From: Escherichia coli
GTDB taxonomy: Bacteria; Pseudomonadota; Gammaproteobacteria; Enterobacterales; Enterobacteriaceae
Length of the DNA stretch: 64,000 nucleotides
Assembly (NCBI RefSeq): GCF_030384885.1
Contig: NZ_CP128613.1
Direction: 5' to 3' (one strand)
A program made the translations under genes and the position numbers. The notes below the pieces were generated by a model. That model saw only the letters and a program-made list of their open reading frames with translations. It had not been told where the DNA came from and searched no databases. Positions 32,401 through 48,335 of this stretch are shown here, piece after piece (positions within the stretch are counted from its first letter, which is position 1; the number at the start of each line of letters is the position of its first letter).

Positions 32401-33979
32401 TAATGTTACGCCAGTTAAACTTGAAGGGGTGGTCCGGATTACCGATAGCGCGACATTAACTATCGGAAATGGCGTCGATACGACGCTTGCCGACCTGACG
32501 GCTGCCAGCCGGGGCAGTGTCTGGCTTAACAGCAATAATTCCTGTGCAGGCACCAGCAACTGCGAATATAGAGTAAACAGTTTGCTCCTCAACGACGGTG
32601 ATGTTTATTTATCAGCACAAACAGCAGCGCCTGCCACAACTAACGGTATCTACAATACGCTGACCACCAGTGAACTTTCCGGCAGCGGTAATTTCTACCT
32701 GCATACCAACGTTGCAGGCTCCCGGGGCGATCAACTGGTCGTCAACAACAACGCCACTGGCAATTTTAAAATCTTTGTTCAGGATACCGGCGTCAGCCCT
32801 CAGTCTGACGACGCGATGACGCTGGTGAAAACAGGGGGAGGGGATGCTTCGTTTACGCTGGGTAATACCGGCGGTTTCGTTGATCTTGGGACCTATGAGT
32901 ATGTCCTGAAAAGCGACGGCAACAGCAACTGGAACCTGACCAATGATGTCAAACCCAACCCGGATCCCAACCCAAATCCGAAACCGGATCCAAAACCAGA
33001 CCCAAAACCGGATCCGAAACCAGACCCGACTCCCGATCCAACGCCGACACCCGTCCCGGAGAAACGCATCACGCCTTCTACGGCAGCCGTACTCAATATG
33101 GCAGCAACATTACCGTTGGTCTTTGATGCTGAGCTAAACAGTATTCGCGAGCGGTTGAACATAATGAAAGCGAGTCCACACAACAATAATGTCTGGGGGA
33201 CGACGTATAACACCCGTAATAATGTCACCACCGATGCGGGTGCCGGGTTTGAGCAGACGCTGACCGGAATGACGGTGGGGATCGATAGCCGTAATGATAT
33301 TCCTGAGGGGATTGCGACGCTGGGCGCTTTTATGGGTTATTCCCATTCACATATCGGTTTTGATCGTGGAGGACATGGCAGTGTGGGCAGTTATTCTCTG
33401 GGGGGCTATGTCAGCTGGGAACATGAAAGTGGTTTCTATCTGGACGGTATCGTGAAGCTGAACCGCTTTGAAAGTAACGTAGCCGGTAAAATGAGCAGCG
33501 GTGGAGCCGCCAACGGCAGTTATCGCAGCAACGGGCTGGGTGGTCATCTTGAAACCGGGATGCGATTTACCGATGGTAACTGGAACCTGACGCCGTATGC
33601 ATCGTTAACGGGGTTCACCGCTGATAACCCCGAATATCATTTATCCAATGGTATGGAATCGAAATCAGTCGATACCCGCAGTATATATCGTGAACTGGGC
33701 GCAACGCTGAGTTACAACATGCGTCTGGGGAACGGCATGGAAGTTGAGCCGTGGCTGAAGGCGGCTGTGCGCAAAGAATTTGTCGATGATAACCGGGTGA
33801 AAGTGAATAATGACGGTAATTTTGTCAATGATTTGTCGGGCAGACGTGGAATATACCAGGCAGGTATTAAAGCCTCATTCAGCAGTTCGTTAAGCGGGCA
33901 TCTCGGGGTAGGGTATAGCAATGGTGCTGGTTTGGAATCCCCGTGGAACGCGGTGGCTGGTGTGAACTGGTCGTTCTGA
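29411..33979 (+). CDS. ypjA: AIDA-I/YpjA-type autotransporter adhesin (~1,522 aa)
   Basis: ORF 29324..33979. Likely start MNRTSPYYFRRSVLSLLISALIYAPPGMAA (signal peptide). Long degenerate ~19-aa beta-helix repeats (GGxQxVxxGGxAxxTxI), a Pro-rich linker, and a C-terminal beta-barrel ending ...AVAGVNWSF. Confidence 0.9.
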   Translation: MNRTSPYYFRRSVLSLLISALIYAPPGMAAFTSTVIGVVNDETVDGVQRVDERGTTNNTHIINHGYQDVYGGVSNGSIIESGGYQDVGGHYNFVGQANNTTINGGRQTIHDGGISTGTIIESGNQDVYTGGISNGTTIKGGNSHISGGTANGTIIDGGSQRVTTQGHVDSTTINKSGSQDITQGSLATNTTINGGRQYVEQSTVETTTIKNGGEQRVYENHALDTTIEGGTQSLNNKSTAKYTQIYSGGTQIVDYTSTSDVIEIYSGGVLDVSGGTATNVTQHDGAILKTNTNGTTVSGTNSEGAFSIHNNVADNVLLENGGHLDVYGSANKTIIKDNGTMSVLANAKADATRIDNGGVMDVAGNATNTIINGGTQNINNHGIATGTNINSGTQNIKSGGKADTTNISSGSRQVVEKDGTATGSNISAGGSLIVYTGGIAHGVNQETGSALVANTGAGTDIEGYNKLSHFTITGGEANYVVLENTGELTVVAKTTAKNTTVDAGGKLIVQKEAKTDSTRLNNGGVLEVQDGGEAKHVEQQSGGALIASTTSGTLIEGTNSYGDAFYIRNSEAKNVVLENAGSLTVVTGSRAVDTIINANGKMDVYGKDVGTVLNSAGTQTIYASATSDKANIKGGKQTVYGLATEANIESGEQIVDGGSTDKTHLKGGTQTVQNYGKAINTDIVSGLQQIMANGTTEGSIINGGSQVVNEGGLAENSVLNDGGTLDVREKGSATGIQQSSQGALVATTRATRVTGTRADGVAFSIEQDAANNILLANGGVLTVESDTTSAKTQVNAGGREIVKTKATATGTMLTGGEQIVEGVANETTINDGGIQTVSANGEAVKTTINEGGTLTVNDNGKATDIIQNSGAALQTSTANGIEISGTHQYGTFSIAGNLATNALLENGGNLLVLAGTEARDSTVGNGGAMQNLGQDFATKVNSGGQYTLGRSKDEFQALARAEDLQVAGGTAIVYAGTLADASVSGATGSLSLMTPRDNVTPVKLEGVVRITDSATLTIGNGVDTTLADLTAASRGSVWLNSNNSCAGTSNCEYRVNSLLLNDGDVYLSAQTAAPATTNGIYNTLTTSELSGSGNFYLHTNVAGSRGDQLVVNNNATGNFKIFVQDTGVSPQSDDAMTLVKTGGGDASFTLGNTGGFVDLGTYEYVLKSDGNSNWNLTNDVKPNPDPNPNPKPDPKPDPKPDPKPDPTPDPTPTPVPEKRITPSTAAVLNMAATLPLVFDAELNSIRERLNIMKASPHNNNVWGTTYNTRNNVTTDAGAGFEQTLTGMTVGIDSRNDIPEGIATLGAFMGYSHSHIGFDRGGHGSVGSYSLGGYVSWEHESGFYLDGIVKLNRFESNVAGKMSSGGAANGSYRSNGLGGHLETGMRFTDGNWNLTPYASLTGFTADNPEYHLSNGMESKSVDTRSIYRELGATLSYNMRLGNGMEVEPWLKAAVRKEFVDDNRVKVNNDGNFVNDLSGRRGIYQAGIKASFSSSLSGHLGVGYSNGAGLESPWNAVAGVNWSF
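32951..33058 (+). repeat. Tandem Pro-rich coding repeat (PNPDPNPNPKPDPKPDPKPDPKPDPTPDPTPTPVP) in the autotransporter linker
   Basis: Direct 6/12-nt repeats ccaaaaccagac/ccaaaaccggat/ccgaaaccagac visible in the DNA. Confidence 0.85.
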
Positions 33980-33990
33980 CCATCAACGAA

Positions 33991-34012
33991 AAAGCCCACA
34001 TCTGTGGGCTTT
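33991..34012 (+). terminator. Hairpin terminator after ypjA
   Basis: aaagcccac-atct-gtgggcttt, 12 nt after the stop codon. Confidence 0.6.
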
Positions 34013-34139
34013 CATATCACCAGGAGCCGCGGCTCCTTTGCGTATCCTTTTATGTCTCCTCACCGTCTGGTCGGTGTCTTGCTGAGACTTCTAACTTCCT
34101 GTTTTTGTTGGTGTTGTCCTTACACCGTCCAATCATGAT

Positions 34140-34183
34140 TGGTGGGCTGGCGGGAGTTGAACCCGCGTCCGAAATTCCTACAT
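34140..34183 (-). repeat. Displaced copy of the tmRNA 3' end (att core) - left boundary of the ssrA prophage
   Basis: tggtgggctggcgggagttgaacccgcgtccgaaattcctacat. The 38 nt at 34146-34183 are identical to 48505-48542 inside ssrA. One base (a) of the acceptor region is missing relative to the functional copy. Confidence 0.9.
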
Positions 34184-34304
34184 ACTAATAATATATCTTT
34201 AAAATCAAAATATTCTATTATTTATCAATGTATTATGTTTATGTGGTGTTAAGGGGTTTATATGGGTTTTAGTTCTCTGCCGCCAAAATGCCGCCAAAAA
34301 AATT

Positions 34305-34336
34305 GAATGGTAAAACGCCAGTTCGTTGAACTGGCG
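34305..34336 (-). terminator. Putative terminator of the thyX-like/dcd-like cargo operon
   Basis: Stem cgccagttc (34316-34324)/gaactggcg (34328-34336) 10 nt after the stop. T-rich on the minus strand afterwards (ttttaccattcaattttttt). Confidence 0.55.
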
Positions 34337-34346
34337 AGATCTTGTC

Positions 34347-35114
34347 TTATTGTTTTATTATCTTAACGTGCGCCGTTCCTCCATTGACTTTTTCGAAATC
34401 TTGGAACAAGGCAGGGGCATCTTGAGTTACAATATCGTAAAGTTTTTCTGAAACTGTTCTCATTTCATAGTCACCCTGTATTGCTCCTCTCATTTCGAAG
34501 AAGTGTCGAATTGCGCGAGCATTTGCTGTGACGATTATTTTTGTCTCGGTTGCATTAGGCAATATAGAGCGAGAAGCGCTTCTTAAGGCCCGCATTTTTT
34601 CTTTTTTGTTCTCATACGATTGGTTTTCACGGATTTTTTTCAAGGATTGCTTATAAAAATCCAGACTACTTTCAATATGTTGGCACCATGACTTAAACAA
34701 TTCTGGGTCATTTTTTACTTCTATAGGGGCTACGAATTCAGCATCGGATTCATCATGATACTGTTGGGATAACTGGCTATATGAAAAACCAGCTCTATGC
34801 CGAACTAGCTGGTGTGTAAATGCACGAGATACCCCAGTAATTAAAAAGGTCCAGTTCAAATGTTCTAAGACACTTTCATGCCCTTGAATAATTAAATTGT
34901 TGATATATTGACTTGTAGTCCGTGGAGACTGCTTATCCTCTCCAAAAGACATATAACATAGCCTGCCAGCGGCCTCTACCAGAAGCTCAGCTTCGGTCGC
35001 CTGCCCTTTGCGAACCCATTGCAATGATGATGTGTTTAAAAAATCATCAAAAACATTACTTTCAAATGAAGGGTGTGATATGCATTTTACTGATAAATCA
35101 GAGATTTTTATCAT
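34347..35114 (-). CDS. ThyX-like (flavin-dependent thymidylate synthase fold) protein with a variant ThyX motif
   Basis: 255 aa. GHESVLEH, THQLVRHRAGFSYSQLSQQY (compare RHRxxSxxxxSxRY) and LPNATETKIIVTANARAIRHFFEMR resemble ThyX. AT-rich. Starts 2 nt after the upstream ORF stop. Confidence 0.7.
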   Translation of the reverse strand: MIKISDLSVKCISHPSFESNVFDDFLNTSSLQWVRKGQATEAELLVEAAGRLCYMSFGEDKQSPRTTSQYINNLIIQGHESVLEHLNWTFLITGVSRAFTHQLVRHRAGFSYSQLSQQYHDESDAEFVAPIEVKNDPELFKSWCQHIESSLDFYKQSLKKIRENQSYENKKEKMRALRSASRSILPNATETKIIVTANARAIRHFFEMRGAIQGDYEMRTVSEKLYDIVTQDAPALFQDFEKVNGGTAHVKIIKQ

Positions 35115-35116
35115 TT

Positions 35117-35902
35117 TTACTCCCGTATAGCTTTTGGGGTGCTTACTTTAGCATCAACCTTTGGTTCGTTTGATTTAGCATTTTTTAGTAATTCAACGGT
35201 GCTTTTTAGGCTATTTATTTCATTTTGTTGAACTTTTATTGTTAATTCAAGATCTTTTGTACTACTGACATTACTGGATACTATTTGAAATAAGAAAGGA
35301 ATTGCTAGGGTTATCAACGTTAGCATTAAGGCTGCTATCGCAATTATAAAGCCAGTTTTTTTCGCAATGATTTTATTGATTTCTTTCGGAAGTCGTTTAT
35401 CAAGTCCTGCAAAATCCTTTCCCATTCTAGAAAGTTGATCATCATCCAATTTATTTACGATTTTTCCTTGGTAACCTTTAGTCGGTATTATTGTTTTAAA
35501 TAATAACATTCGGGCTACTGCTGAATTTTGTGTCAATGAGAATGGTTCTTTTGACATATTTACAAGATATATTGAAATTATGCCATTATATCCAGGGTCA
35601 ATATGCCCTGGATTCGTCATGATAATTCCATTTTTTGATAGTGTGTTTCTTGGAAATATTACACCAGCTAAATTTTTTGCAAGTTGGAATTTTTCATTTA
35701 ACTCTAATATTACAGTTTCCCCTGGCATCAGGATATGGTTGTTACGTGTTTTTTTATTGTCTTGACAGTCTGGTATATGTATTGTTTTTACAGAGAGATC
35801 AATGCTTGCAGATTGAACTTTAAATGTTCCATTTAATACCGTTAATGGATCAAAAATGTTGCCTCGCTGAATTTCATCATTGATTTCTATTTCAGACAGC
35901 AT
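35117..35902 (-). CDS. dCTP deaminase/dUTPase-superfamily domain protein with C-terminal TM helix and coiled-coil tail
   Basis: 261 aa. SIDLSV, PGETVILELNEKFQL, FPRNTLSKNGIIMTNPGHIDPGYNGIISIYLVN align by eye with E. coli Dcd (DGRSSLARLG...HRIDPGWSGCIVLEFYN) and Dut motif III (GLIDSDYQG). TM segment GFIIAIAALMLTLITLAIPFLFQIV. Confidence 0.7.
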   Translation of the reverse strand: MLSEIEINDEIQRGNIFDPLTVLNGTFKVQSASIDLSVKTIHIPDCQDNKKTRNNHILMPGETVILELNEKFQLAKNLAGVIFPRNTLSKNGIIMTNPGHIDPGYNGIISIYLVNMSKEPFSLTQNSAVARMLLFKTIIPTKGYQGKIVNKLDDDQLSRMGKDFAGLDKRLPKEINKIIAKKTGFIIAIAALMLTLITLAIPFLFQIVSSNVSSTKDLELTIKVQQNEINSLKSTVELLKNAKSNEPKVDAKVSTPKAIRE

Positions 35903-35928
35903 ATCAAAATCCTATATTTGTAAAGTTA

Positions 35929-36942
35929 TTATAAATTAGCCAGAGGGTTTTTTATTACTGCATCTTCAAGATGCTCTGGGGAAAAATGTGCATAAATCAT
36001 AGTCATTTTTATATCAGAGTGGCCTAAAATATCTCGTAAAACCAAAATATTACCACCATTCATCATAAAATGGCTGGCGAATGTATGGCGCAGAACGTGA
36101 GTGCATTGGCCCTCTGGTAACTCAATGTCAGCTCGCTTTACTGCTCGTTCAAAGGCTTTTCTGCAAGGAGTGAATAACTTCCCTCTGTTCTTAGGGAGTT
36201 CGTCATACAGATCCTGAGATATCGGCACGGTACGGTTTTTCTTGCCCTTAGTCTTGGTATAGGTGATCCGGTATTTCGATAACTGATGGCCCTGCAGATT
36301 TTCGGCTTCACTCCAGCGCGCGCCGGTGGCCAGGCATATTTTTGTAATTAAAAGTAGACTGGGGCTTTGAGAATCAGCACAGGCATCCAGCAGACGTTTA
36401 ATTTCTTCCGGGGTCAGGAACGACAGTTCACCCTCAGCAATTTTAAATGTTGGCAGCCCGGCAAGCGGATTGGGGGCTGACCAGTGGCCCAACTTTTTCA
36501 GTGTGCCAAAAACAGATGATAGGTTGCGCTGTTCAAGGTTTACAGTGCGGGGCTTAACGGGCGACATAAGCGTGCCCTCTTCATTTCGCACTTCACCTTT
36601 TAGCCGCGCTTCTCGGTATTTAGTAAAATCACCGGCTGTCAGCTCTGAGGCGATGGGATCGCCTAGACCATTACAGATAATTCTAAGTTTCGCCATGAGG
36701 CGCTTGGGGTCTGCGAGTGTTTGACCATACAGGGAATACCACTGCTCAATTAATTCTGATAGGTGTCGCCGATCTTCCTTTTCCCCCAGCCATGGCTTTT
36801 TGTTCACTTCTTCCATTGTGAAGCTTTCAAAAGCAATGGCTTCGCCTTTCGTAGCAAATTGCTTACGCACGCGCTTGCCATTGCGTCCATGGGGATAGCA
36901 CTCGCACAACCATTTACCGTTTGGCTGTTTTCTGACAGTCAT
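35929..36942 (-). CDS. int: Phage tyrosine integrase (P2/186 family)
   Basis: 337 aa. Box I ATGARWSEAENL, box II HVLRHTFASHFMMNGGNILVLRDILGHSDIKMTMIYAH (R, H-x-x-R, H, Y). Confidence 0.9.
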   Translation of the reverse strand: MTVRKQPNGKWLCECYPHGRNGKRVRKQFATKGEAIAFESFTMEEVNKKPWLGEKEDRRHLSELIEQWYSLYGQTLADPKRLMAKLRIICNGLGDPIASELTAGDFTKYREARLKGEVRNEEGTLMSPVKPRTVNLEQRNLSSVFGTLKKLGHWSAPNPLAGLPTFKIAEGELSFLTPEEIKRLLDACADSQSPSLLLITKICLATGARWSEAENLQGHQLSKYRITYTKTKGKKNRTVPISQDLYDELPKNRGKLFTPCRKAFERAVKRADIELPEGQCTHVLRHTFASHFMMNGGNILVLRDILGHSDIKMTMIYAHFSPEHLEDAVIKNPLANL

Positions 36943-36944
36943 GT

Positions 36945-37577
36945 TTAGATACTCTTTATTACTTTGACTGCACGCCCAATAACTTCCACATCATCAGTAG
37001 AGCACTCGAAAGACGCTTCATCTTGATTTACTACAATCTTATTGCCGGGAATCCGCATGATTTTTGCAACAATAATCATTCCATCAATATTGATAAGCCA
37101 GAATCCATTGCTGACCTGTTTAATTGATTTATCGATGAGATAACAATTAGTAGGGGTTTCTAAGAACATCAATTCTTCATAATCTGCAGGTAATATGCTG
37201 TGGTCTAGGAAAATCTCTTCATCAATACTGAGTTGTCCATTCTCCAGGGTTCCTTTAGGAATAGCTGGAGTTATGAGTTTGGATAACGGTTTAATTGCTT
37301 GTTTGTTCTCATTATGAGAACTTTTCTCAGGCTCAGCTCCTCCTTTCATGCTTCCCTGTCCTGTAGCTAACCAAAGCAACGAAACACCGGTTTCTAGTGC
37401 GCACTGAATTATCCAGTCAGCAGGAAAGCTGTCACGTAACACTCTGTTTGCCATAGTGCTTTTTGAGACATTCAGGTGCTCGCTTAATGCCTGCTTAGTT
37501 GTGAATCCATAAGCCTCAAGCAGCCTTTCAATAGCTGCCTTACCTCCCGTATCGGAACCCATTCTGATGTTTAACAT
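36945..37577 (-). CDS. cI: 186-type CI immunity repressor
   Basis: 210 aa. N-terminal HTH (TKQALSEHLNVSKSTMANRVLRDSFPADWIIQCALETGVSLLWLATGQG), typical of the phage 186 CI family. Divergent from the apl-cII lytic operon. Confidence 0.8.
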   Translation of the reverse strand: MLNIRMGSDTGGKAAIERLLEAYGFTTKQALSEHLNVSKSTMANRVLRDSFPADWIIQCALETGVSLLWLATGQGSMKGGAEPEKSSHNENKQAIKPLSKLITPAIPKGTLENGQLSIDEEIFLDHSILPADYEELMFLETPTNCYLIDKSIKQVSNGFWLINIDGMIIVAKIMRIPGNKIVVNQDEASFECSTDDVEVIGRAVKVIKSI

Positions 37578-37590
37578 TGGTGATCTCCAT

Positions 37591-37619
37591 TTGACAATCT
37601 TGAATCAAGATCGTAATGT
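37591..37619 (+). promoter_or_regulatory. Putative lytic promoter (pR-like) with embedded palindromic operator
   Basis: TTGACA (37591-96) - 17 nt - TAATGT (37614-19). The spacer is the perfect 15-bp palindrome atcttgaatcaagat (37597-37611). Lies between divergent cI and apl. Confidence 0.55.
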
Positions 37620-37698
37620 CTTCATGTCTCTTGATGTGAGAGTTTAAGAGACGGGCTAAAACGAACTAACACGCACACAAAGTAAGAGATACTGCACT

Positions 37699-37941
37699 AT
37701 GAGTACTGATATTTCAATTCGTGTACCAAAAGAGATGGCTACGCCTGCAGAGTTCGCAGAGTGGGAGGGTATTTCCCGCGGCTCTGTTTACCAAAAAATT
37801 CACCATGGTCAACTTGCTAAGTACATGGTCAAGAAAGAAAAAAACAAAGGCCGCGTAAGCCTGCGTTATCTGATGTACAAAACCGATCAGGTCCGTGAAT
37901 CCCTCGGTCATTCCAACTTCCGCGTCATTGTTGGTAAGTAA
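37699..37941 (+). CDS. apl: Apl/Cox-like excisionase-transcriptional regulator
   Basis: 80 aa; HTH ATPAEFAEWEGISRGSVYQKIHHGQL. First gene of the rightward early operon. Confidence 0.7.
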   Translation: MSTDISIRVPKEMATPAEFAEWEGISRGSVYQKIHHGQLAKYMVKKEKNKGRVSLRYLMYKTDQVRESLGHSNFRVIVGK

Positions 37942-37973
37942 GTTCAATTATGGGAACTTTCTAAGGGGGCACC

Positions 37974-38483
37974 ATGTTTGATTACAAGATTTCCAAACAT
38001 CCGCATTTCGATGAAGCCTGTAGGGCTTTTGCACTGCGCCACAACCTGGTGCAACTGGCAGAACGTGCAGGCATGAATGTGCAGATTCTGCGGAACAAGC
38101 TGAACCCAGCTCAACCTCATTTATTAACTGCACCAGAAATCTGGTTGCTTACCGATCTGACTGAAGATTCAACGCTGGTAGATGGTTTTCTGGCTCAGAT
38201 TCACTGCCTGCCATGTGTACCGATTAATGAGGTGGCAAAAGAGAAACTGCCACATTACGTCATGAGTGCAACCGCAGAGATCGGGCGTGTCGCGGCAGGT
38301 GCGGTTTCTGGCGATGTAAAAACCAGTGCAGGCCGTCGTGATGCGATCAGCAGCATTAACTCTGTTACACGACTGATGGCGCTGGCTGCTGTTTCATTGC
38401 AGGCCCGTTTACAGGCTAATCCTGCGATGGCGAGTGCGGTTGATACCGTGACTGGCCTCGGTGCTTCATTCGGTTTGCTGTGA
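37974..38483 (+). CDS. cII: 186 CII-like lysogeny establishment activator
   Basis: 169 aa [49 protein letters not shown]. Same length and N-terminus as recalled phage 186 CII. Confidence 0.75.
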
Positions 38484-38490
38484 GGTGCTT

Positions 38491-38787
38491 ATGCTGATGA
38501 AAGAACCATCATTTGCATCGCTCCTGGTAAAACAAAGTCCGGCAATGCACTACGGTCACGGCTGGATCATGGGTGAGGATGGTAAACGCTGGCATCCGTA
38601 CCGTTCACAAGATGAATTGCTGTCTGAATTGACCACGAGGAAACGGAGAAAGTCCAAATGTATGCGGCAGAAAATAAAGTGGTTTATCACTTTCGTTACA
38701 GAGGGGAGAATTATTCAGTACCTGAAGATGATTTGCTCTGTTGCTATCCGTCGTTGTCGGGCGATGGTAGCTACTTTTTCACGCTAA
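38491..38787 (+). CDS. Hypothetical early-operon protein (Fil position)
   Basis: ATG at 38491 preceded by tgaGGTGc. MLMKEPSFASLLVKQSPAMHYGHGWIMGEDGKRWHPYRSQDELLSEL. The 3' third overlaps the next ORF by 130 nt, so the true end is uncertain. Confidence 0.45.
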   Translation: MLMKEPSFASLLVKQSPAMHYGHGWIMGEDGKRWHPYRSQDELLSELTTRKRRKSKCMRQKIKWFITFVTEGRIIQYLKMICSVAIRRCRAMVATFSR

Positions 38788-38882
38788 AGGATGGAACCTT
38801 TATACGTGGTGAAAAAGTACAAGAAGTGATGCGTATAAAGACATCACCTCTTGAACGTTATCGGCGAAATATTTATCGGTAA
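38658..38882 (+). CDS. Hypothetical phage protein (74 aa)
   Basis: ATG preceded by GGAGAAAG SD. MYAAENKVVYHFRYRGENYSVPEDDLLCCYPSLSGDGSYFFTLKDGTFIRGEKV. Confidence 0.5.
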   Translation: MYAAENKVVYHFRYRGENYSVPEDDLLCCYPSLSGDGSYFFTLKDGTFIRGEKVQEVMRIKTSPLERYRRNIYR

Positions 38883-39121
38883 CGATCTATCAGTGTCTGT
38901 ATCAGATGAGTGAATTCTTGTTGTTTAACCGAACCTAAAGGAAGTTTGTTTAATTCTTCGCGGAGGAGCTCAAAAAATGCTGATTGATTTGCTGAGTCAG
39001 TTCGAAATAAGGAGTGGATCAGACCTGAAACAAGAATTCGTTGAACAGCAACCTCATCGCGAAGACTGGAGATCTCGTTTTCAAGTTGCTCTATACGCTC
39101 TCTTTCAACCGGGTTCAACAT
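38873..39121 (-). CDS. Hypothetical coiled-coil protein encoded antisense to the early operon (moron-like)
   Basis: 82 aa MLNPVERERIEQLENEISSLRDEVAVQRILV...; AAGGAA SD 8 nt upstream on the minus strand. More coding-like than the overlapping plus-strand ORF 38977..39213. Confidence 0.45.
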   Translation of the reverse strand: MLNPVERERIEQLENEISSLRDEVAVQRILVSGLIHSLFRTDSANQSAFFELLREELNKLPLGSVKQQEFTHLIQTLIDRYR

Positions 39122-39202
39122 TGATGATTCCTTCTAGCTATCAATATGTTGGTAATGGATCATATCAAAAATTTTTTAGTAGATGTGTTGTGGGATGCAT
39201 AA

Positions 39203-39544
39203 ATGGCTATTGAAGGCACTGCGGCGACTGTTCCATTAAGCCCCGGTGAACGCCTGAATGGACTTAATCACATTGCGGAGTTAAGGGCGAAAGTTTTTGG
39301 CCTGAATATTGAGTCAGAGCTTGAGCGGTTTATTAAAGATATGCGTGATTCACGGGATATTAATAGCGAACAAAATAAACGGGCACTGGCTGCCATATTC
39401 TTTATGGCAAAAATTCCAGCTGAACGTCATAGCATCAGCATTAATGAGCTGACCACTGACGAAAAGCGGGAGTTGATTAAAGCAATGAATCATTTTCGTG
39501 CAGTGGTGAGCTTATTTCCCAGACGGCTAACCATGCCGAATTAA
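39203..39544 (+). CDS. Hypothetical phage protein (113 aa)
   Basis: ORF-track ORF in early-operon orientation; no recognisable motif. Confidence 0.5.
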   Translation: MAIEGTAATVPLSPGERLNGLNHIAELRAKVFGLNIESELERFIKDMRDSRDINSEQNKRALAAIFFMAKIPAERHSISINELTTDEKRELIKAMNHFRAVVSLFPRRLTMPN

Positions 39545-39611
39545 CCAACTAATGAAATTAATGGCGTAAACCCGCCGGGCATCCCTTTATCTAAATTCAG
39601 GAGAATTGATT

Positions 39612-39845
39612 ATGCGTAATATTGAAACCCTCTCGACCAAAACCGGACCGGATGACGCAGGGCTTAATATTTTACTGACAGAGGCTCGTCTGGAAGAACG
39701 CCGGGCAAGGGCTGAAGCAATGGCAGCTCGCCTTGATAGCCTGGCGTGTCATATCACATCCCGCCAGCTAACCCACGTCGAAGCGGCAGAACTGCTTCGT
39801 GTGACTGCTGAAGCAATCCAGAACGAAGCGCAGGAGATCCACTGA
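39612..39845 (+). CDS. Hypothetical phage protein (77 aa)
   Basis: ATG at 39612 with AGGAG 9 nt upstream. Stop overlaps the next start (ATGA-type coupling at 39842-39847). Confidence 0.55.
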   Translation: MRNIETLSTKTGPDDAGLNILLTEARLEERRARAEAMAARLDSLACHITSRQLTHVEAAELLRVTAEAIQNEAQEIH

Positions 39846-40072
39846 TGGCTGATGCAATGGATCTCGTACAGCAGCGCGTTGAAGAAGAACGCCAACGCCA
39901 TATCCGTGCTGCCCGTGCCAAAACGCCGGGCGTGTCCCGCGTGCTTTGCATTGAGTGTGAAGCGCCAATTCCGCCAGCACGCCGCCGTGCCATTCCGGGT
40001 GTGCAGCTTTGCATTACCTGTCAGGAAATCGCAGAGCTGAAAGGCAAACATTACAACGGAGGTGCTGTATGA
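39845..40072 (+). CDS. TraR/DksA-family C4 zinc-finger protein
   Basis: 75 aa with CIECEAPIPPARRRAIPGVQLCITCQ (CxxC-N17-CxxC), typical of P2/186 early operons. Confidence 0.8.
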   Translation: MADAMDLVQQRVEEERQRHIRAARAKTPGVSRVLCIECEAPIPPARRRAIPGVQLCITCQEIAELKGKHYNGGAV

Positions 40073-40926
40073 GCACCATCCTGAAATGGGCGGGAAATAA
40101 AACTGCCATAATGTCCGAACTGAAAAAACATCTTCCTGCTGGCCCGCGACTGGTTGAACCTTTCGCGGGTTCCTGTGCTGTGATGATGGAGACGGATTAT
40201 CCCAGCTATCTGGTTGCGGATATTAATCCTGATTTAATCAACCTCTATAAAAAGGTTGCCGCTGATTGTGAATCGTTTATATCTCGCGCCAGAGTTTTAT
40301 TTGAGATCGCAAACAGGGAGGTGGCTTATTACAACATAAGGCAGGAGTTTAATTACTCAACTGAAATTACTGATTTCATGAAAGCGGTATATTTCCTGTA
40401 TCTCAATCGTCACGGTTACCGTGGTTTATGTCGCTATAACAAGAGCGGGCATTTCAACATTCCCTACGGTAATTATAAAAATCCGTATTTCCCTGAAAAA
40501 GAAATTCGCGCATTTGCAGAAAAGGCCCAGCGAGCAACGTTTATCTGCGCCAGCTTTGATGAAACGCTGGCGATGTTGAAGGCGGGGGATGTGGTGTATT
40601 GCGATCCGCCGTATGACGGTACGTTTTCCGGCTATCACACTGACGGCTTCACTGAAGATGACCAGTATCACCTGGCATCTGTTCTTGAACATCGGTCATC
40701 AGAAGGACATCCGGTCATTGTTTCTAACAGTGACACATCCCTGATCCGTTCGCTGTATCGCAATTTTACTCACCACTACATCAAGGCAAAACGCAGCATC
40801 GGTGTGGCAGCTGGCGAGGGTAAATCAGCAACAGAAATCATTGCTGTTTCCGGGCCGCGCTGCTGGGTGGGATTTGATTATTCGCGTGGCGTGGATAGTT
40901 CTGCCGTGTACGGAGTACGTGCATGA
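40069..40926 (+). CDS. dam: Phage DNA adenine methyltransferase (Dam, GATC-type, N6-MTase)
   Basis: ORF 40009..40926; the internal Met gives [11 protein letters not shown]...[10 protein letters not shown] (SAM motif) and VYCDPPY (catalytic DPPY). Start overlaps the upstream stop. Confidence 0.85.
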
Positions 40927-43337
40927 GTCATGCCGATATGAACAACTGCTGCGGCTTTAACGAAGCTGCCGCATCGTTCTCATGGAACAGCCCGAAAAAG
41001 GCCATTAACCCTTATCTGGACCCGGCGGAAGTTGCGCCGGTTTCTGCGCTTTCAAACCTGATCACTCTGTACGCTACTGATAACGAGCAGGAACAACTGC
41101 GCCGCGAGGCACTGAGTGATCAGGTCTGGGAGCGTTATTTCTTTAATGAATCCCGTGATCCTGTCCAACGCGAAATGGAGCAGGATAAGCTCATTAGCCG
41201 GGCAAAGATGGCGCATGAGCAGCAGCGTTTTAATCCAGACATGGTCATTCTGACTGACGTCAACGCCCAGCCTTCCCATATCAGCAAGCCGCTGATGCAA
41301 CGTATTGAATATTTCAGCAGCCTGGGCAGGCCAAAGGCTTATTCCCGCTATTTGCGTGAGACGATTAAGCCATGTCTGGAACGACTGGAGCATGTACGCG
41401 ACAGCCAGCTATCTGCATCTTTTCGTTTTATGGCAAGCCATGAAGGGCTGGACGGTCTGCTGATCCTGCCTGAAATGAGTCAGGATCAGGTGAAACGCCT
41501 GTCTACCCTTGTCGCTGCGCATATGAGCATGTGTCTTGATGCCGCTTGTGGTGATTTGTACGCCTCCGATGATGTTAAGCCAGAAGAAATCCGCAAGACA
41601 TGGGAAAAGGTGGCTGCAGAAACCCTGCGACTGGATGTCATACCGCCTGCGTTTGAGCAACTCCGCCGGAAAAGAAACCGCCGCAAACCTGTGCCTTATG
41701 AACTCATTCCGGGTTCGCTGGCGCGTATGCTGTGCGCCGACTGGTGGTATCGGAAATTATGGAAGATACGTTGCGAATGGCGGGAAGAGCAGTTGCGTGC
41801 TGTCTGCCTGGTCAGCAAAAAAGCATCTCCCTATGTCAGCTATGAAGCCGTGATGCATAAACGTGAGCAGCGCCGTAAGTCGCTGGAGTTTTTCCGTTCT
41901 CATGAACTGGTGAACGAAGACGGCGACACGCTGAACATGGAGGATGTGGTAAACACCAGCAGCAGCAACCCGGCGCATCGCCGCAACGAGATGATGGCCT
42001 GTGTTAAAGGCCTAGAGCTTATCGCGGAAATGCGTGGTGACTGCGCCGTTTTCTACACCATCACCTGTCCGTCACGTTTCCATTCCACGCTAAATAACGG
42101 CAGGCCAAACCCGACCTGGACCAACGCGACAGTAAGACAAAGCAGCGATTATCTGGTCGGCATGTTTGCTGCATTTCGTAAGGCTATGCACAAAGCCGGG
42201 TTGCGCTGGTATGGCGTGCGGGTGGCTGAGCCGCATCATGACGGCACAGTTCACTGGCACCTGTTGTGTTTCATGCGCAAAAAAGACCGCCGCGCCATTA
42301 CTGCATTGTTGCGTAAGTTTGCCATCCGTGAAGACCGCGAGGAGCTGGGCAATAACACGGGGCCACGCTTTAAGTCTGAGCTGATAAACCCGCGCAAAGG
42401 AACGCCGACAAGCTACATTGCGAAATATATCAGTAAGAATATTGACGGGCGTGGTCTGGCTGGCGAGATCAGTAAGGAAACGGGTAAATCCCTGCGTGAT
42501 AACGCTGAATACGTTAATGCCTGGGCGTCTCTGCATCGTGTTCAGCAATTCCGCTTCTTTGGCATTCCGGGGCGTCAGGCTTACCGTGAACTGCGATTGC
42601 TGGCTGGTCAGGCGGCAAGGCAACAGGGTGACAAAAAAGCAGGTGCGCCGGTACTGGATAACCCGCGCCTTGATGCCATCCTGGCTGCTGCTGATGCTGG
42701 TTGTTTTGCCTCCTACATCATGAAGCAGGGCGGCGTACTGGTTCCCCGCAAATATCACCTCATCAGAACCGCTTATGAAATCAACGAAGAGCCGACCGCC
42801 TATGGCGATCACGGTATTCGTATTTATGGCATCTGGTCACCCATTGCAGAGGGCAAGATCTGCACTCATGCAGTGAAGTGGAAAATGGTTCGTAAGGCCG
42901 TTGACGTTCAGGAGGCGGCAGCCGACCAGGGCGCTTGCGCCCCTTGGACTCGTGGCAATAACTGTCCCCTTGCTGAAAATTTGAACCAACAGGAGAAAGA
43001 TAAATCAGCTGATGGGGACACCAGAACGGACATTACCCGCATGGATGACAAGGAGTTGCACGATTACCTGCACAGTATGAGCAAAAAAGAGCGCCGGGAA
43101 CTGGCTGCAAGGTTACGCCAGGTGAAACCGAAACGGCGTAAAGACTACAAACAGCGAATTACAGACCATCAGCGACAGCAGCTCGTCTATGAACTGAAGT
43201 CCAGGGGATTTGATGGCAGTGAGAAAGAAGTCGATTTGCTCCTTCGCGGTGGCAGTATTCCGTCAGGAGCAGGCCTGCGTATTTTCTATCGGAACCAGCG
43301 TCTGAAGGAAGATGATAAGTGGCGGAACCTGTATTAA
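40923..43337 (+). CDS. A: P2 gpA/186 A-type rolling-circle replication initiator endonuclease
   Basis: 804 aa. HUH-type region [16 protein letters not shown] and active-site Tyr region [15 protein letters not shown]. Position after dam. Confidence 0.85.
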
Positions 43338-43429
43338 TTACGCGGGTTAACAATTCGTGCCCTTAATAATACCAGGCATATCAGGCTGATGAATGTAAAA
43401 AAACGTTTTACATCAGTAAGATTATTATA

Positions 43430-43449
43430 TACTGTAAATATAAACAGTG
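43430..43449. promoter_or_regulatory. LexA (SOS) box upstream of the tum-like operon
   Basis: tACTGtaaatataaaCAGtg = CTG-N10-CAG with an AT-rich core, 40 nt upstream of the ATG at 43490. Phage 186 tum is known to be LexA-controlled. Confidence 0.8.
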
Positions 43450-43489
43450 GTTATCTATACAGTATTGCTTTGGTGTCATAGGAGGAAAG

Positions 43490-43678
43490 ATGCAGGACTA
43501 TTTTTTGGAGTCTTTGAAGCTCCAGCGCATTGATTTTTTTCTTAAGCTTGTAGCGGCTAGTGAGTGTAGTGATGAAGAGAAGGGGCTGGCTCTGCAGTGG
43601 GTTTCTGAACTGACAGATGAACTCATGGCAAAAATCAGAACCCACGAATACAACCGCTCAATGGATGTCATCAGCTGA
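43490..43678 (+). CDS. Small protein at the Tum N-terminal position (putative antirepressor part)
   Basis: 62 aa; GGAGGA SD. Immediately downstream of the LexA box and 10 nt upstream of the DinI-like ORF. Confidence 0.55.
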   Translation: MQDYFLESLKLQRIDFFLKLVAASECSDEEKGLALQWVSELTDELMAKIRTHEYNRSMDVIS

Positions 43679-43688
43679 GGTGACTTTT

Positions 43689-43922
43689 ATGCGCATTGAA
43701 ATAATGATCGATAAAGAGCAGAAGATTAGCCAGTCTACCCTGGACGCCCTTGAATCCGAGCTTTACCGCAATCTGCGCCCCCTGTATCCCAAAACGGTAA
43801 TCCGTATCCGTAAAGGTAGCTCTAACGGTGTGGAACTGACCGGACTGCAACTGGACGAAGAAAGAAAACAAGTGATGAAAATTATGCAGAAGGTGTGGGA
43901 AGACGACAGCTGGCTGCATTGA
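43689..43922 (+). CDS. DinI-family protein (Tum C-terminal-like)
   Basis: ORF 43617..43922; the internal Met at 43689 (SD tGAGGTGa) gives MRIEIMIDKEQKISQSTLDALESELYRNLRPLYPKTVIRIRKGSSNGVELTGL...VWEDDSWL, a DinI-like sequence. Confidence 0.75.
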   Translation: MRIEIMIDKEQKISQSTLDALESELYRNLRPLYPKTVIRIRKGSSNGVELTGLQLDEERKQVMKIMQKVWEDDSWLH

Positions 43923-44035
43923 TTTTGTCAATAGACGCTTGTTTTTACTAATCAAAAAGGGTTACATATGAGTGAGAGGCGATGTCAATCAGATATCGCC
44001 TTGTTTTTTGTCAAGAAAAGAATAATAGGCTAAAA

Positions 44036-44713
44036 ATGAAAATTAATAATGTAGCGTTACCAATATCTCTTGCTGTAATCCTAACTGGTTGCGTGCCACA
44101 TGCTTCTAACCGAAATATCACTGCTATTGAAGTGGTGAAGCCTGCTATTGGGCAAAGTGCTACCGCCTACATGGGCGATCCCATTATCACATCTGCTACT
44201 GGATTTAAAACGGACGTACTAGAACTTGGTGCGGCTAATGGTGCATTGTCTTCTATCGCTGCTGGTACATATTGCAGTGAGGGGAATGGAATTTACCGCA
44301 ATTATCATAACCCTCAAGCTGTTGCGTTAAAAAATCTCTATGGGCAAATCGGTAACTATGTTGATTATGTTAGTTACGATGCTGCAAAAAATGAGATATC
44401 ACCGCCAAATGGTACTTCTTATACTGCATCAGAAATTTCTATCAAACGTGTTCCTGATGGGCTGTGTCGAGTTAGTAACTCATTGGTTAAGACTATCGAA
44501 TACAATGGAAATGCAGGCGGTGTAATGAAGTTCACCTATCGTGAATTTGCAAACGATATGGCTCGTGCAGCATTTACAACAGATTTTTCTGTAGATTCTA
44601 AGGGAAGTGACGTTATCGCTTACAAAGGTGCCAAGTTCAAAGTGAACAAGGCTGATAACTCGTCTATTTCTTATACAATTATTTCTGGCTTTGACAAGGC
44701 TGTCACGTTCTAG
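44036..44713 (+). CDS. Prophage cargo lipoprotein (225 aa)
   Basis: ORF 43982..44713; the internal Met gives MKINNVALPISLAVILTGC (lipobox LTGC). No recognisable domain. Confidence 0.65.
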   Translation: MKINNVALPISLAVILTGCVPHASNRNITAIEVVKPAIGQSATAYMGDPIITSATGFKTDVLELGAANGALSSIAAGTYCSEGNGIYRNYHNPQAVALKNLYGQIGNYVDYVSYDAAKNEISPPNGTSYTASEISIKRVPDGLCRVSNSLVKTIEYNGNAGGVMKFTYREFANDMARAAFTTDFSVDSKGSDVIAYKGAKFKVNKADNSSISYTIISGFDKAVTF

Positions 44714-44817
44714 GTTTCACGCTTACTGAGTATGTTACGATTTTGCACATTCTGCATAAACGCGCATGTCTATGCTGCATGAGATCGCATGATCGTTTGA
44801 GGATCTTTTGTGTTAAG

Positions 44818-44841
44818 GCCCGCCAGTTCTGGCGGGCTTTT
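44818..44841 (+). terminator. Rho-independent terminator after the lipoprotein gene
   Basis: gcccgccag-tt-ctggcgggc followed by tttt. Confidence 0.75.
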
Positions 44842-45038
44842 GCGTAGATCATGCAGGTGCATGAAAACCACTACATAAAGCGGGCAGGCGTGGCGGGGAT
44901 ACGAGCGCGCGTTATGACAAATAGATGATTAGCCTGATTTATTCACAGCTGTATAAATGATCACCTTGTAATTAGGTAAGTAATGTCTTCTATTATCATT
45001 GATTTGATAGGATTAATCTGTTTTTTGAGGATTAGAGG

Positions 45039-47375
45039 ATGATTGAAGAGGTAGTTATTGACAAAGTAGGCTCATATAATGGCCCTACTCAGCTTTTACA
45101 TGGGCTTTCTAAATTTAACTATTTATATGGAGCTAATGGTGCAGGTAAAACAACTATAAGTAAAATTATTAATGACCCTGAACAATATCCAACATGTCCG
45201 ATTAAATGGAAAAATAATATATCTTTAATAAGCTACGTATATAATAAAGATTTTGTTGAAAGAAATTTTAGTCAAGATAAAATTAAAGGTGTATTTACCC
45301 TTGGTAGCGATCTTAAGGAGGATGAAGAGAAATTAATATCTCTTGAAGAAGAAAAAAATAAGCTAATAGAATCTATTATAGCAAAGGAAAAGCTAATAGA
45401 TGGTGGTGATAATATATTAGGCGTTGTTAAACAAATCGAAGACCATGAAAAATCTTTTAAAGATTCATGTTGGAAGCAAAAAGTAAAACATGATAATGTG
45501 TTCTCAAAGGCTTTTGAGGGATTAAGGAATAGTAGTGAAAAATTTAAAGCTAGAGTGTTGGCTGAGTATGAAAATAACACATCAGAAGTTTGCTCAATAG
45601 CAGAGCTAATTGAGAAAGCAAAAATTGTTTTTTCTACTGAATTGACATCACATGTATCAATTACAATTCCATCCTTCAATGGGATAGATGATATTTTGAG
45701 TAGGGAGATTTGGAGTGAGCGTATTCTAGGGAAAAAAGACGTTAGTGTTTCAGACTTAATTACAATGCTCAATAACAGTGATTGGGTTAAGGAAGGTTTA
45801 ACATATTTCAGTAAATCTAATCCCAAGTGCCCATTCTGCCAGCAGGATGTAAATGATAATATATTTGATAATCTATCATCATATTTTGATAAAACATATG
45901 AGTTAAAAAAAAGAGAAATCGATGCATTGGTTTTACAATATGAACATCAACTTAATAATATCTTGCAGGCGATAGATGATATAAGGGCGATTAAATCTCC
46001 ATTCATAAATTATGAAGTGTTTGAGGATAAGGCTAAGATAGTATTATCTGAATTAAACAAGAATTTTGAATTGGCAAAAAATAAACGCAATTTTTTAAGT
46101 GAATCAGTTCATTTTAGTGACTTAAGTGAAGTTGTTGATGATTTTATTTCTTTTTTGAATGATTCAAATCTATTGATAGATAATAATAACAAAATACACA
46201 GTAATAGAAAGGTAGAGGCTAGTAATCTTTCTAATCAGATATGGGCATATATCGTAAAGGTGGAGTTAAAGTCTGAAATAACTTCTTACCGTAGCGAATC
46301 TGATAAATTTAATAGGAAGTTACAAGGGCTTAAATCTGGGTTAGAGGAAGACAAAAAGAAGTTAATGTTAAATGCTTCGGCTATTGAGGCAATTGAGTCT
46401 AATAAAACCAGTACTCTTCCAACTATTACAAAAATTAACAAGATTCTGGATTCTTATGGCTTCAAAAATTTTTACTTAAAACCCTCCGAAGATAAAAAGC
46501 ATTATATGATAGTGAGAGATAGTGGAGATAATGCTCGTACAACCCTTAGCGAGGGAGAAAAGACATTTATCACTTTTTTGTATTTTTATAGCCTTGTTAG
46601 AGGGAGTGATAATGCATCAGGTGTTTTAGATGATCGTGTTGTAGTATTTGATGATCCAATTTCAAGTTTAGATAGTGATATTCTGTTTATTGTAAGTTCG
46701 TTGATTAAAGATTTAATGGAGGATGTTCGTAAGGATGAAGGAAATATTAAGCAAATTATATTCCTTACACATAATATTTATTTTCATAAAGAGTTGACTT
46801 TTAATACTAAAAGATCCGGTAATCAAGCAATGAAAGAGGAGACTTTTTGGATTGTAAGGAAAAAAGGGAAGGTCTCATATCTTGAAAAGTGCGAATCAAA
46901 CCCAATAAAAACGTCTTATGATTTGCTCTGGTGCGAATTGAGAAGAACAGATATTAATAATAATACTATACAAAATACAATGCGAAGGATTTTGGAGAAT
47001 TACTTTAAGATATTAGGTGGGATGGATATTAGGAAGCTTGAATGTCATTTTTATGGTGATGAAAAAATCATATTTAAATCTTTAGTGTCATGGATTAATG
47101 ATGGTTCTCATTTTGCAGGTGATGATCTTTATATGAATTTAGATACGGAGTCTGTGCAAAAATATTTAATTGTTTTTCAGAAGATATTTGAGTGTAGTGA
47201 GCATACTGCCCATTACAAAATGATGATGGGTGAGTTTTATAGACCGTTAAATGAGTCACTTCATCTACAAGATGAGTTTGATATTGATGATAGTGCGAAT
47301 GATGAGTATGCTTCGTCAAAAATTGAGATAGAAGATGGAATAAACACATCTCTACATAGTAATACATATTTGTAA
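45039..47375 (+). CDS. RloC/PrrC-like ABC-type ATPase (AAA_13-like) with coiled-coil CxxC hook and putative C-terminal anticodon-nuclease region
   Basis: 778 aa, AT-rich. Walker A GANGAGKTT, signature LSEGEKTF, Walker B VVVFDDPISSLD, H-loop FLTHN, a long Lys/Glu-rich insert containing KCPFCQQ, and a C-terminal MRRILENYF...NDGSH motif. Confidence 0.65.
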   Translation: MIEEVVIDKVGSYNGPTQLLHGLSKFNYLYGANGAGKTTISKIINDPEQYPTCPIKWKNNISLISYVYNKDFVERNFSQDKIKGVFTLGSDLKEDEEKLISLEEEKNKLIESIIAKEKLIDGGDNILGVVKQIEDHEKSFKDSCWKQKVKHDNVFSKAFEGLRNSSEKFKARVLAEYENNTSEVCSIAELIEKAKIVFSTELTSHVSITIPSFNGIDDILSREIWSERILGKKDVSVSDLITMLNNSDWVKEGLTYFSKSNPKCPFCQQDVNDNIFDNLSSYFDKTYELKKREIDALVLQYEHQLNNILQAIDDIRAIKSPFINYEVFEDKAKIVLSELNKNFELAKNKRNFLSESVHFSDLSEVVDDFISFLNDSNLLIDNNNKIHSNRKVEASNLSNQIWAYIVKVELKSEITSYRSESDKFNRKLQGLKSGLEEDKKKLMLNASAIEAIESNKTSTLPTITKINKILDSYGFKNFYLKPSEDKKHYMIVRDSGDNARTTLSEGEKTFITFLYFYSLVRGSDNASGVLDDRVVVFDDPISSLDSDILFIVSSLIKDLMEDVRKDEGNIKQIIFLTHNIYFHKELTFNTKRSGNQAMKEETFWIVRKKGKVSYLEKCESNPIKTSYDLLWCELRRTDINNNTIQNTMRRILENYFKILGGMDIRKLECHFYGDEKIIFKSLVSWINDGSHFAGDDLYMNLDTESVQKYLIVFQKIFECSEHTAHYKMMMGEFYRPLNESLHLQDEFDIDDSANDEYASSKIEIEDGINTSLHSNTYL

Positions 47376-47424
47376 TTTTATTGCAATTGCCAGTAGCAAC
47401 AATACGGTACTGGCAACTAATATT

Positions 47425-47965: not shown

Positions 47966-48335
47966 CATCTCAACCATGCGTTACAGCTCGATCCCCGCTG
48001 TGGCGTGAAAAAAGACAAACAGCAGCTGGAGCGCAGACTGCGCAATGACAGCCGCTGACAGAACGTGCCCCCGCGCACGGGCGGCACGGGGTGGCGAAAG
48101 GCACAGCCACATCAAAACCCCGTCCACCGCCCTTTATTTCAGGAGAAAGCAGCATGAAGTTTGTTGCGCCAGAACAGGCACCGGAACAGGCGGAAATCAT
48201 CAGAAACACGCCGTTCTGGCCTGATGTGGACCTGTCGGAGTTTCGCAGTGTCATGCGCACTGACGGCACGGTGACGCAGCCGCGTTTAAAGCAGGTTGCG
48301 CTGTCGGCAATTTCGGAGGTCAACGCACCGATACG
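47966..48335 (+). pseudogene. Late-gene relics: C-terminal tail of a gpM-like gene (tentative) and N-terminal ~60 codons of gpL head-completion protein
   Basis: ...LDPRCGVKKDKQQLERRLRNDSR* ends at 48058. Then AGGAGA SD and MKFVAPEQAPEQAEIIRNTPFWPDVDLSEFRSVMRTDGTVTQPRLKQVALSAISEVN (ATG 48154), gpL-like, which loses similarity after ~48330. Confidence 0.5.

Follow-up and report, generated by a model that had tools for sequence, protein, structure and literature searches.

The Escherichia coli contig NZ_CP128613.1 (assembly GCF_030384885.1) includes a 64,000-nucleotide (nt) stretch, referred to here as the window, in which a decayed 186-like prophage carries two adjacent genes that form a conserved operon, obligately paired and translationally coupled. 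Gene 1 encodes a membrane-anchored protein with the fold shared by dCTP deaminase (Dcd) and dUTPase (Dut); gene 2 encodes a homologue of the flavin-dependent thymidylate synthase ThyX. The reading that we favour, and to which we give about an even chance, is that this horizontally acquired operon specifies a two-step module for processing deoxypyrimidine nucleotides, accessory to the cell and most likely directed against phages. The pair would manipulate or sense pyrimidine deoxynucleoside triphosphate (dNTP) metabolism. Its anti-phage role, along with the catalysis and the trimerisation considered below, is what we infer from the observations that follow.

Co-conservation of the two genes was assessed by scanning one genome per species with an invariant peptide of gene 1. 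The scan returned 51 loci from Pseudomonadota, Acidobacteriota, Actinomycetota (including a Mycobacterium), Cyanobacteriota, Verrucomicrobiota, Myxococcota and Bacteroidota. A ThyX-like gene lies beside the Dcd-like gene in 45 of them, spread over at least six phyla. Five of the six loci lacking the partner end at a contig edge and the sixth is a truncated gene fragment; the proportion among evaluable loci is therefore 45 of 46. The partner is located downstream on the same strand in 40 loci, with a 4-nt overlap between the two reading frames in 20 of these. Look-ups starting from either gene found the other every time, where the DNA extended beyond the query gene. The original prediction, made from the letters of the window alone, had treated the genes as a unit and had asked whether homologues are always paired and whether they sit in defence islands or prophage cargo slots. 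The survey answers that they are paired wherever this can be evaluated, and that they occupy cargo positions of mobile elements, beside known defence genes or alternating with them. A profile search of 1.84 billion representatives yielded 492 clusters at E ≤ 1e-30 (about 490 clusters at 50% identity). Since hundreds of homologues of both proteins share the same peculiarities, the features of the pair described here are not due to chance. Identity within the family is 25-65% for the Dcd-like proteins and 50-80% for the ThyX-like proteins, the latter figure, maintained across phyla, suggesting a working enzyme under selection.

The gene 2 product matches the Thy1 family (PF02511, 2.6e-48) and scores 154.8 bits with TIGR02170, above the cut-off of 87.9. 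Its nearest solved structure by sequence is the ThyX protein of Mycobacterium tuberculosis (Mtb; 7e-42), and the AlphaFold2 (AF2) model (pLDDT 91) gives a Foldseek TM-score of 0.83 with Mtb ThyX structure 3hzg. In the HMMER alignment, Mtb residues Y44, H69, R87, H91, R95-H-R97, S105, Y108, R172 and R199 all have identical counterparts in gene 2, and these do not vary within the subfamily; those of Y44, H69, S105, Y108, R172 and R199 are Y54, H79, S116, Y119, R182 and R209, respectively. The departure from the canonical enzyme lies in the signature RHRAGFSYSQLSQQY (residues 105-119). Here the ThyX motif reads RHR-AGFSYSQL-S, that is, RHRX8S as opposed to the canonical RHRX7S, one extra residue directly following RHR. 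Gln118 sits where Mtb R107 (R90 in Thermotoga maritima) would be. The canonical actinophage motif, RHR-HxSYSxLSQRY, has the X7 spacing, as does Mtb ThyX. Both the insertion and the replacement of the last Arg by Gln had been picked out in the original prediction, and both turned out to be constant: the signature RHRxG[FW]xxSQ[LM]SQQY is found in 120 of the 120 top database homologues and in all 45 partner genes. Gene 2 further has TANARA where ThyX has TGNxRAW. In T. maritima ThyX, Arg78, Arg80, Ser88 and Arg90 are conserved residues that make hydrogen bonds to dUMP (PMC3498832). R90 also hydrogen-bonds the catalytic Tyr91; with R90A, S88A or Y91A the flavin carbinolamine is consumed more slowly, and methylene transfer is slowed in R90A (PMC8316439). 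We conclude that gene 2 encodes a bona fide but atypical member of the ThyX family, conforming to it in profile and fold and departing from it in motif spacing and in the Arg.

The residues for binding FAD, the dUMP phosphate and uracil N3/O4 being kept, the gene 2 product, translationally coupled to gene 1, would carry out flavin- and folate-dependent one-carbon chemistry at C5 of a dUMP-like nucleotide. Kinetics, substrate or product would be altered, because an invariant Gln takes the place of the dUMP-contacting, Tyr-tuning Arg and a residue is inserted after RHR. One way to develop this idea, which we consider unlikely, is that the pair is a modified-nucleotide synthase acting on another pyrimidine substrate or making another C5 product (e.g., hydroxymethyl or another one-carbon adduct), with the Dcd-like subunit supplying the substrate and the product serving as an antiviral analogue or as a DNA mark. 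It would fit with the invariant changes falling exactly in the nucleotide-contacting loop and sparing the ligands of flavin and phosphate (PMC3498832; PMC8316439), with the co-occurrence at some loci of NUDIX, MazG-like and kinase genes, as is typical where nucleotides are modified (see below), and with the DefensePredictor finding that validated defence systems can include nucleotide-modification enzymes, such as the ThyA-type synthase of DS-4. However, the Arg that serves as uracil O4/N3 ligand (Mtb R199) is kept, which points to a uracil-type substrate, and only the two genes are universally conserved, so that later kinase and polymerase steps would have to come from the host.

Residues ~1-150 of gene 1 had been aligned by eye to the Dcd/Dut beta-barrel. 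All peptide motifs quoted for the two proteins in the original prediction were found in them, and the barrel assignment was borne out: Pfam gives matches to DCD (5.9e-15) and dUTPase (1e-12), the AF2 model (pLDDT 80) shows the barrel, and the best Foldseek matches of this model are the bifunctional dCTP deaminase-dUTPases 4xjc (2.5e-12), 2qlp and 4a6a, which a sequence search (phmmer) also ranks as the best solved relatives. The scores remain below the cut-offs of the NCBIfam models for dCTP_deam (TIGR02274; 56.2 bits against 92.8) and for dUTPase (Dut, TIGR00576; 40.7 bits against 102.6). Alignment to 4xjc places Tyr111 at the position of the catalytic Glu (E. coli E138) and RNT..K at that of the RSS..R element of Dcd, which contains Ser111 and Arg115; the Asn/Lys/Tyr substitutions had been read correctly from the sequence. 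In the 26 relatives that were aligned and in the 50 copies from genomes, the place of the deaminase Glu is taken by Y, C, T or A and in no case by E. The dUTPase motifs I and III are present, II is altered, and IV (R..Q) and V (RGxxGFGS) are absent, the lack of motif V having also been noted beforehand. In place of motifs IV and V, residues 150-183 form a helix with a KDFAG..R segment. Invariant positions of the family comprise S33, D35, G61, E70, P84, T96-N-P-G-H100, D102-P-G, G107, N115, M116, D163 and F164; among the aligned relatives this holds for the whole stretch T-N-P-G-H-[IV]-D-P-G, for the motif I Asp35, for N115-M116 and for D163-F164, which precede the transmembrane (TM) helix.

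Because the deaminase Glu is lost, gene 1 does not encode a dCTP deaminase; judging from its motifs, it does not encode a canonical dUTPase either. The deoxypyrimidine pocket is retained, its deoxyribose and pyrimidine residues being Asp35 (motif I) and His100-Ile-Asp102-Pro-Gly-Tyr105 (motif III). At the membrane, the protein may bind a deoxypyrimidine triphosphate and possibly hydrolyse it, acting either as a dUTP/dCTP pyrophosphatase with altered catalysis or as a nucleotide-binding subunit with a regulatory or anchoring function.

The C-terminus of gene 1 had been described as one hydrophobic helix followed by a coiled-coil-like tail, and this layout was recovered: the barrel and the KDFAG..R segment are followed by a TM helix (residues 185-208, Kyte-Doolittle mean 2.65) and by a poorly conserved coiled-coil tail. 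A stretch rich in Lys and Arg precedes the helix; therefore, by the positive-inside rule, we infer that the N-terminal domain is cytoplasmic. The protein would probably be a trimer anchored in the inner membrane, with its Dcd/Dut-type barrel in the cytoplasm. Many defence systems couple an enzyme-like sensor to a TM effector, and the pair could be an abortive-infection device in which a phage nucleotide or enzyme is sensed and the single-pass membrane protein oligomerises, damages the inner membrane and kills the cell. We find this doubtful. Such a device would account for the TM helix and coiled coil present in nearly all full-length family members, for the single continuous helix (residues 154-243) that runs through the TM segment into the tail in the AF2 model, and for the PHROG search in which residues 185-243 weakly resemble Rz-like spanins (E = 0.03). 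Yet each chain has one TM helix only, the periplasmic tail is poorly conserved, and conservation is strongest in the two enzyme-like cores, which fits catalysis better than pore formation. One longer member of the family (P0308, 611 amino acids (aa)) has about 340 extra N-terminal residues, possibly a fused partner that might give a clue to function; a Pfam scan of longer members such as this one detected no further domain and hence no fusion clue.

Taken as successive steps, the two genes could not provide the canonical dCTP-to-dTMP pathway, which was rejected on account of the missing deaminase Glu. A shorter pathway we judge rather unlikely: the pair could be a metabolic "moron" that offers the host or the element a dUTP to dUMP to dTMP route in which folate is not oxidised, useful under antifolate, folate or thymine stress and unrelated to phage defence. 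The order of the genes is the order of the metabolic steps, gene 2 exceeds the thyX equivalog cut-off and keeps all but one of the extended-motif residues, many neighbours are housekeeping genes, and some loci add nucleotide kinases and pyrophosphohydrolases. This explanation is hard to reconcile with an Arg-to-Gln change, invariant along with the insertion, at a residue whose Ala mutant is slowed in methylene transfer (PMC8316439), and with a partner that is membrane-anchored, has neither motif IV nor motif V of dUTPase and lacks the Glu of Dcd. Moreover, the distribution is sporadic and in mobile-element cargo slots, and isolated phages have canonical ThyX, never the pair. E. coli and hosts like it already have ThyA and Dut of their own.

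In the window, the two reading frames are on the minus strand and 2 nt apart, and a hairpin follows them (Table 1), all as originally described and confirmed by ORF calls and folding. The spacing is equally tight upstream: 2 nt separate the repressor gene cI from the integrase gene int, and 26 nt separate int from gene 1. Both ORFs have ribosome-binding sites (AGGA and GGGAG) that were rated good as read from the sequence. A promoter scan of the 26-nt gap gave no promoter-like site. As the gaps are short and this site is lacking, the pair is probably transcribed by read-through from cI-int in the lysogen, so that its expression would come from the lysogenic transcript of the decayed prophage. 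The segment that the original prediction proposed to clone with its native promoter (34300-36000) does cover the pair; the promoter of its own that was assumed there is not found in the gap. The hairpin, CGCCAGTTC-GTT-GAACTGGCG, starts 10 nt past the stop codon of the ThyX-like gene, with a minimum free energy of -14.1 kcal/mol (z = -2.0), and UUUU follows on the minus strand. It has the appearance of an intrinsic terminator and would close the operon. The tmRNA fragment was the sole match in an Rfam scan of positions 33900-37700.

Table 1. Features of the cargo operon and its surroundings in the window
Feature	Position	Strand	Basis
Gene 1, Dcd/Dut-fold protein, 261 aa	35902..35117	-	ORF call
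Gene 2, ThyX-family flavoenzyme homologue, 255 aa	35114..34347	-	ORF call
Terminator-like hairpin, 9-bp stem, 3-nt loop, then UUUU	34316..34336	-	Sequence and folding
int-to-gene-1 spacer, 26 nt, holds AGGA ribosome-binding site	35903..35928	-	Sequence and promoter scan
Integrase (int)	36942..35929	-	ORF; RefSeq annotation of TUM12355 locus
CI repressor (cI)	37577..36945	-	ORF; RefSeq annotation of TUM12355 locus
Distal att repeat, copy of ssrA 3' end, bounds cargo slot	34146..34186	.	Direct repeat; Rfam tmRNA fragment
ssrA (tmRNA), contains second att copy 48505-48545	48498-48860	-	tmRNA

The pair has a GC content of 31-39%, compared to 45-50% for int and about 50% for the flanking chromosome, in line with the AT-richness seen at the outset. 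One complete E. coli genome among 5426 has the pair (TUM12355, whose locus is 99.8% identical to that of the window). Low GC, rarity in the species and residence in cargo positions of mobile elements all mark the pair as accessory and mobile. Its position inside an att-bounded 186-like element, between the att core and int, was upheld by the identification of a 41-nt direct repeat (98% identity), one copy of which is the 3' end of ssrA. The span between the repeats is only 14.4 kilobases (34146-48545). There remain cI, int, the early genes including cII and Fil, replication gene A, a DinI-like gene, the gene for a 778-aa AAA_13 protein and a portal fragment (47425-47823). The AAA_13 ATPase (45039-47375, plus strand) matches the PADLOC candidate PDC-S06 (1.5e-266), with weaker similarity to LmuB, PrrC and AriA; it sits after gene A and DinI, a second cargo position, the tin/old-type hotspot of P2. 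The element is thus a decayed 186-like prophage that has lost its late genes and kept both cargo positions. Intact cargo slots in a remnant devoid of late genes suggest domestication of the cargo. The early region shows a small insertion, an 82-aa ORF (38873-39121, minus strand) between a shortened Fil gene and DUF5347; TUM12355 and F374 have a hypothetical protein annotated by RefSeq at this position, and other sister prophages lack it. The autotransporter gene upstream in the window is ypjA/EhaD.

The statement that this phage family has no genes between att and int proved mistaken: the six sister E. coli prophages examined all have cargo in the slot, and always other cargo. An anti-phage dCTP deaminase (PADLOC dCTPase, 4.2e-145) occupies it in two of the six. 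Elsewhere the slot holds unannotated genes for proteins of 222 aa (L064:3803-4471 and L067:3803-4471), 397 and 375 aa (L066:2107-4482) and 343 aa (L068:3453-4484); apart from the dCTP deaminase, none of the sister-prophage cargo matches PADLOC. The position of the pair inside a prophage, and its assignment to PHROG families 1663 (dCTP deaminase) and 85 (thymidylate synthase), might indicate backbone genes that serve the nucleotide metabolism of 186-like phage replication or counteract nucleotide depletion by the host. This was judged very improbable and the backbone assignment was rejected as largely excluded. Among 50,697 phage genomes we found no DNA match and no full-length protein homologue of the pair, only distant protein matches at the domain level, and phage ThyX proteins are at most 38% identical to gene 2 and all canonical. 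The cargo of the slot varies among sister prophages, the pair is not confined to prophages (it is also found on an integrative and conjugative element (ICE), in chromosomal islets and in many phyla), and here it is kept in a remnant no longer capable of phage replication. PLSDB plasmids gave no match to the pair.

Similar positions recur in other hosts. In a Klebsiella variicola 186-like prophage the pair directly follows int. In Citrobacter it is on a conjugative element (an ICE of Citrobacter koseri) or beside GmrSD and AAA_15/DUF3696 genes, and in Pseudomonas aeruginosa it lies between a 1708-aa NYN-neighbouring DEAD/UvrD protein (a giant helicase) and a 1598-aa nSTAND NTPase. In a marine integrative element it comes after the integrase and is flanked by NERD and PLD-DEAD helicase genes. 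This element, which is widespread (81 contigs, including Tara samples), also encodes a conserved 325-aa protein without a Pfam domain (L070:5815-6792), the order being integrase, Dcd-like and ThyX-like genes, the 325-aa protein, then a Phage_GPA replication gene.

A scan of 125 neighbouring ORFs from 39 species loci identified PADLOC matches to dCTPase (8e-154), GajB-like helicases, DRT, PDC-S07 and PDC-S68, and Pfam matches to NUDIX, PfkB, dCMP deaminase and integrases. An anti-phage-type dCTP deaminase (dCMP_cyt_deam_1) directly adjoins the pair in the same orientation in an actinobacterium, an alphaproteobacterium and an acidobacterium (L026:10122-11729, L051:5797-7563 and L056:9558-11126), once upstream and twice downstream; this repeated adjacency may reflect a functional link. 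Seven acidobacterial loci (L017 (8873-10855), L020, L022, L024, L025, L035 and L041) add genes for a NUDIX-WGR protein and a weakly MazG-like protein of about 330 aa, which in four acidobacterial loci are between the core genes, the ThyX-like gene being inverted there. A PfkB kinase gene is added in three loci (L030, L045 and L050) and a small P-loop kinase-like ORF in L026. From outside our data set, Table S3 of DefensePredictor tabulates "FAD-dependent thymidylate synthase" (27 at +/-1, 31 at +/-2) and "dCTP deaminase" (PMC13092281). If, as we read its columns, these annotations are of neighbours contributing to predictions of known defence genes (PMC13092281), the entries hint independently that genes of this kind are neighbours of defence genes.

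Searches for an existing name gave a negative outcome. PADLOC v2 (2023) has no match for gene 1 or gene 2, the dCTP deaminase of the sister prophages (4.2e-145) serving as positive control, and NCBIfam (June 2026) contains no defence-named model for either protein. The literature search turned up nothing that describes the pair or links ThyX or a membrane Dcd/Dut protein to defence, most subscription journals falling outside its range, so that a name may exist. The scores of gene 1, the motifs, PADLOC and the literature concur with the original view that these are not canonical, motif-complete Dcd and ThyX enzymes and do not belong to a named system; the structure predictions and fold searches proposed with it recovered the Dcd/Dut and ThyX folds.

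Several observations weigh against an anti-phage module. Most of the 125 neighbours, which come from environmental genomes, are ordinary metabolic or transport genes, and the enrichment in defence islands appears modest. The extra NUDIX-WGR, MazG-like, PfkB and P-loop kinase genes would suit a metabolic pathway better than they would a pair of sensor and effector. PADLOC and NCBIfam are both without a defence model for either protein. Gene 2 scores above the cut-off of the NCBIfam thyX equivalog, with its catalytic residues almost all preserved, leaving room for plain dTMP synthesis. Finally, the membrane anchor of gene 1 is unexplained by the module that we favour.

Known defences that act on nucleotide pools use zinc deaminases, HD dGTPases, NADases or ATP nucleosidases. 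If the pair is defensive, its strategy of interfering with the nucleotide pool is a known one and its components are new, two classical housekeeping folds (Dcd/Dut and ThyX) joining bacterial immunity. A bolder version, of low probability in our estimation, is that the pair represents a new anti-phage class, in which the rewired ThyX turns folate- and flavin-dependent one-carbon chemistry towards a deoxypyrimidine that is non-canonical as substrate or as product, and a membrane-anchored, deaminase-dead Dcd/Dut trimer delivers or gates the nucleotide and detects infection at the inner membrane. If true, this would be the first enzyme of the flavin-dependent thymidylate synthase fold and the first Dcd/Dut-fold protein in immunity. 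Whatever its role, the family raises an enzymological question, namely what a ThyX does with a constant Gln for the conserved dUMP-contacting Arg. Annotation pipelines name its members "dCTP deaminase" and "FAD-dependent thymidylate synthase", a systematic misreading. The juxtaposition with the anti-phage dCTP deaminase hints at a possible link, for example the handling of the dU nucleotides which that enzyme makes, and several more unannotated candidates reside in the att-int slot of 186-like prophages, apparently a hotspot for cargo or defence genes.

How the two proteins relate to known systems can be summarised as follows. Gene 1 shares with the bifunctional DCD-DUT enzymes (M. jannaschii, M. 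tuberculosis, B. halodurans 4xjc) and with Dcd the beta-barrel, motif III (N-[AP]-G-x-[IV]-DPG-[FYW]) and the motif I Asp. It differs from them in the catalytic Glu (Tyr in gene 1, Cys/Thr/Ala in relatives), in the RSS element (RNT in gene 1, PNS in the family), in having the KDFAG..R segment, TM helix and coiled coil in place of the C-terminal lid, and in its constant pairing with a ThyX-like gene. Trimeric Dut has the same fold, the motif I Asp, the motif III Asp and Tyr, and likewise no Glu at the deaminase position; however, the gene 1 family does not conserve the motif II Arg and has neither motif IV (R..Q) nor the P-loop-like motif V, and gene 1 is membrane-anchored and scores under the dut cut-offs. 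Gene 2 resembles ThyX of the Mtb type (3gwc, 2af6, 3hzg) in fold (TM-score 0.83), in exceeding the TIGR02170 cut-off and in most active-site residues. It departs from that enzyme in RHRX8S for RHRX7S, in Gln for Mtb R107 and in TANARA for TGNxRAW, as well as in its genetic setting, beside the gene of a Dcd-like membrane protein on mobile elements, in hosts already having a thymidylate synthase.

Two defence systems are close in theme. DefensePredictor DS-4, an experimentally validated E. coli system made of a thymidylate synthase, a dNMP kinase, a base-hypermodification protein and a TIR protein, also has a thymidylate-synthase-type enzyme. Its synthase is of the ThyA type (PF00303), with a fold unrelated to that of gene 2 (PF02511), its partner genes are absent from the window, and it includes no Dcd-like or TM component; identity of the pair with DS-4 was rejected on the grounds of the ThyA-type enzyme and the different partners. 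The anti-phage dCTP deaminase (AvcD/DcdV; PADLOC dCTPase) is a single soluble protein whose fold, a zinc cytidine-deaminase domain preceded by a kinase-like one, is unrelated to those of the pair, and neither gene 1 nor gene 2 matches its PADLOC model. What it has in common with the pair is its target, deoxypyrimidine nucleotide metabolism, and its location: it occupies the same att-int slot in sister prophages and adjoins the pair in three phyla.

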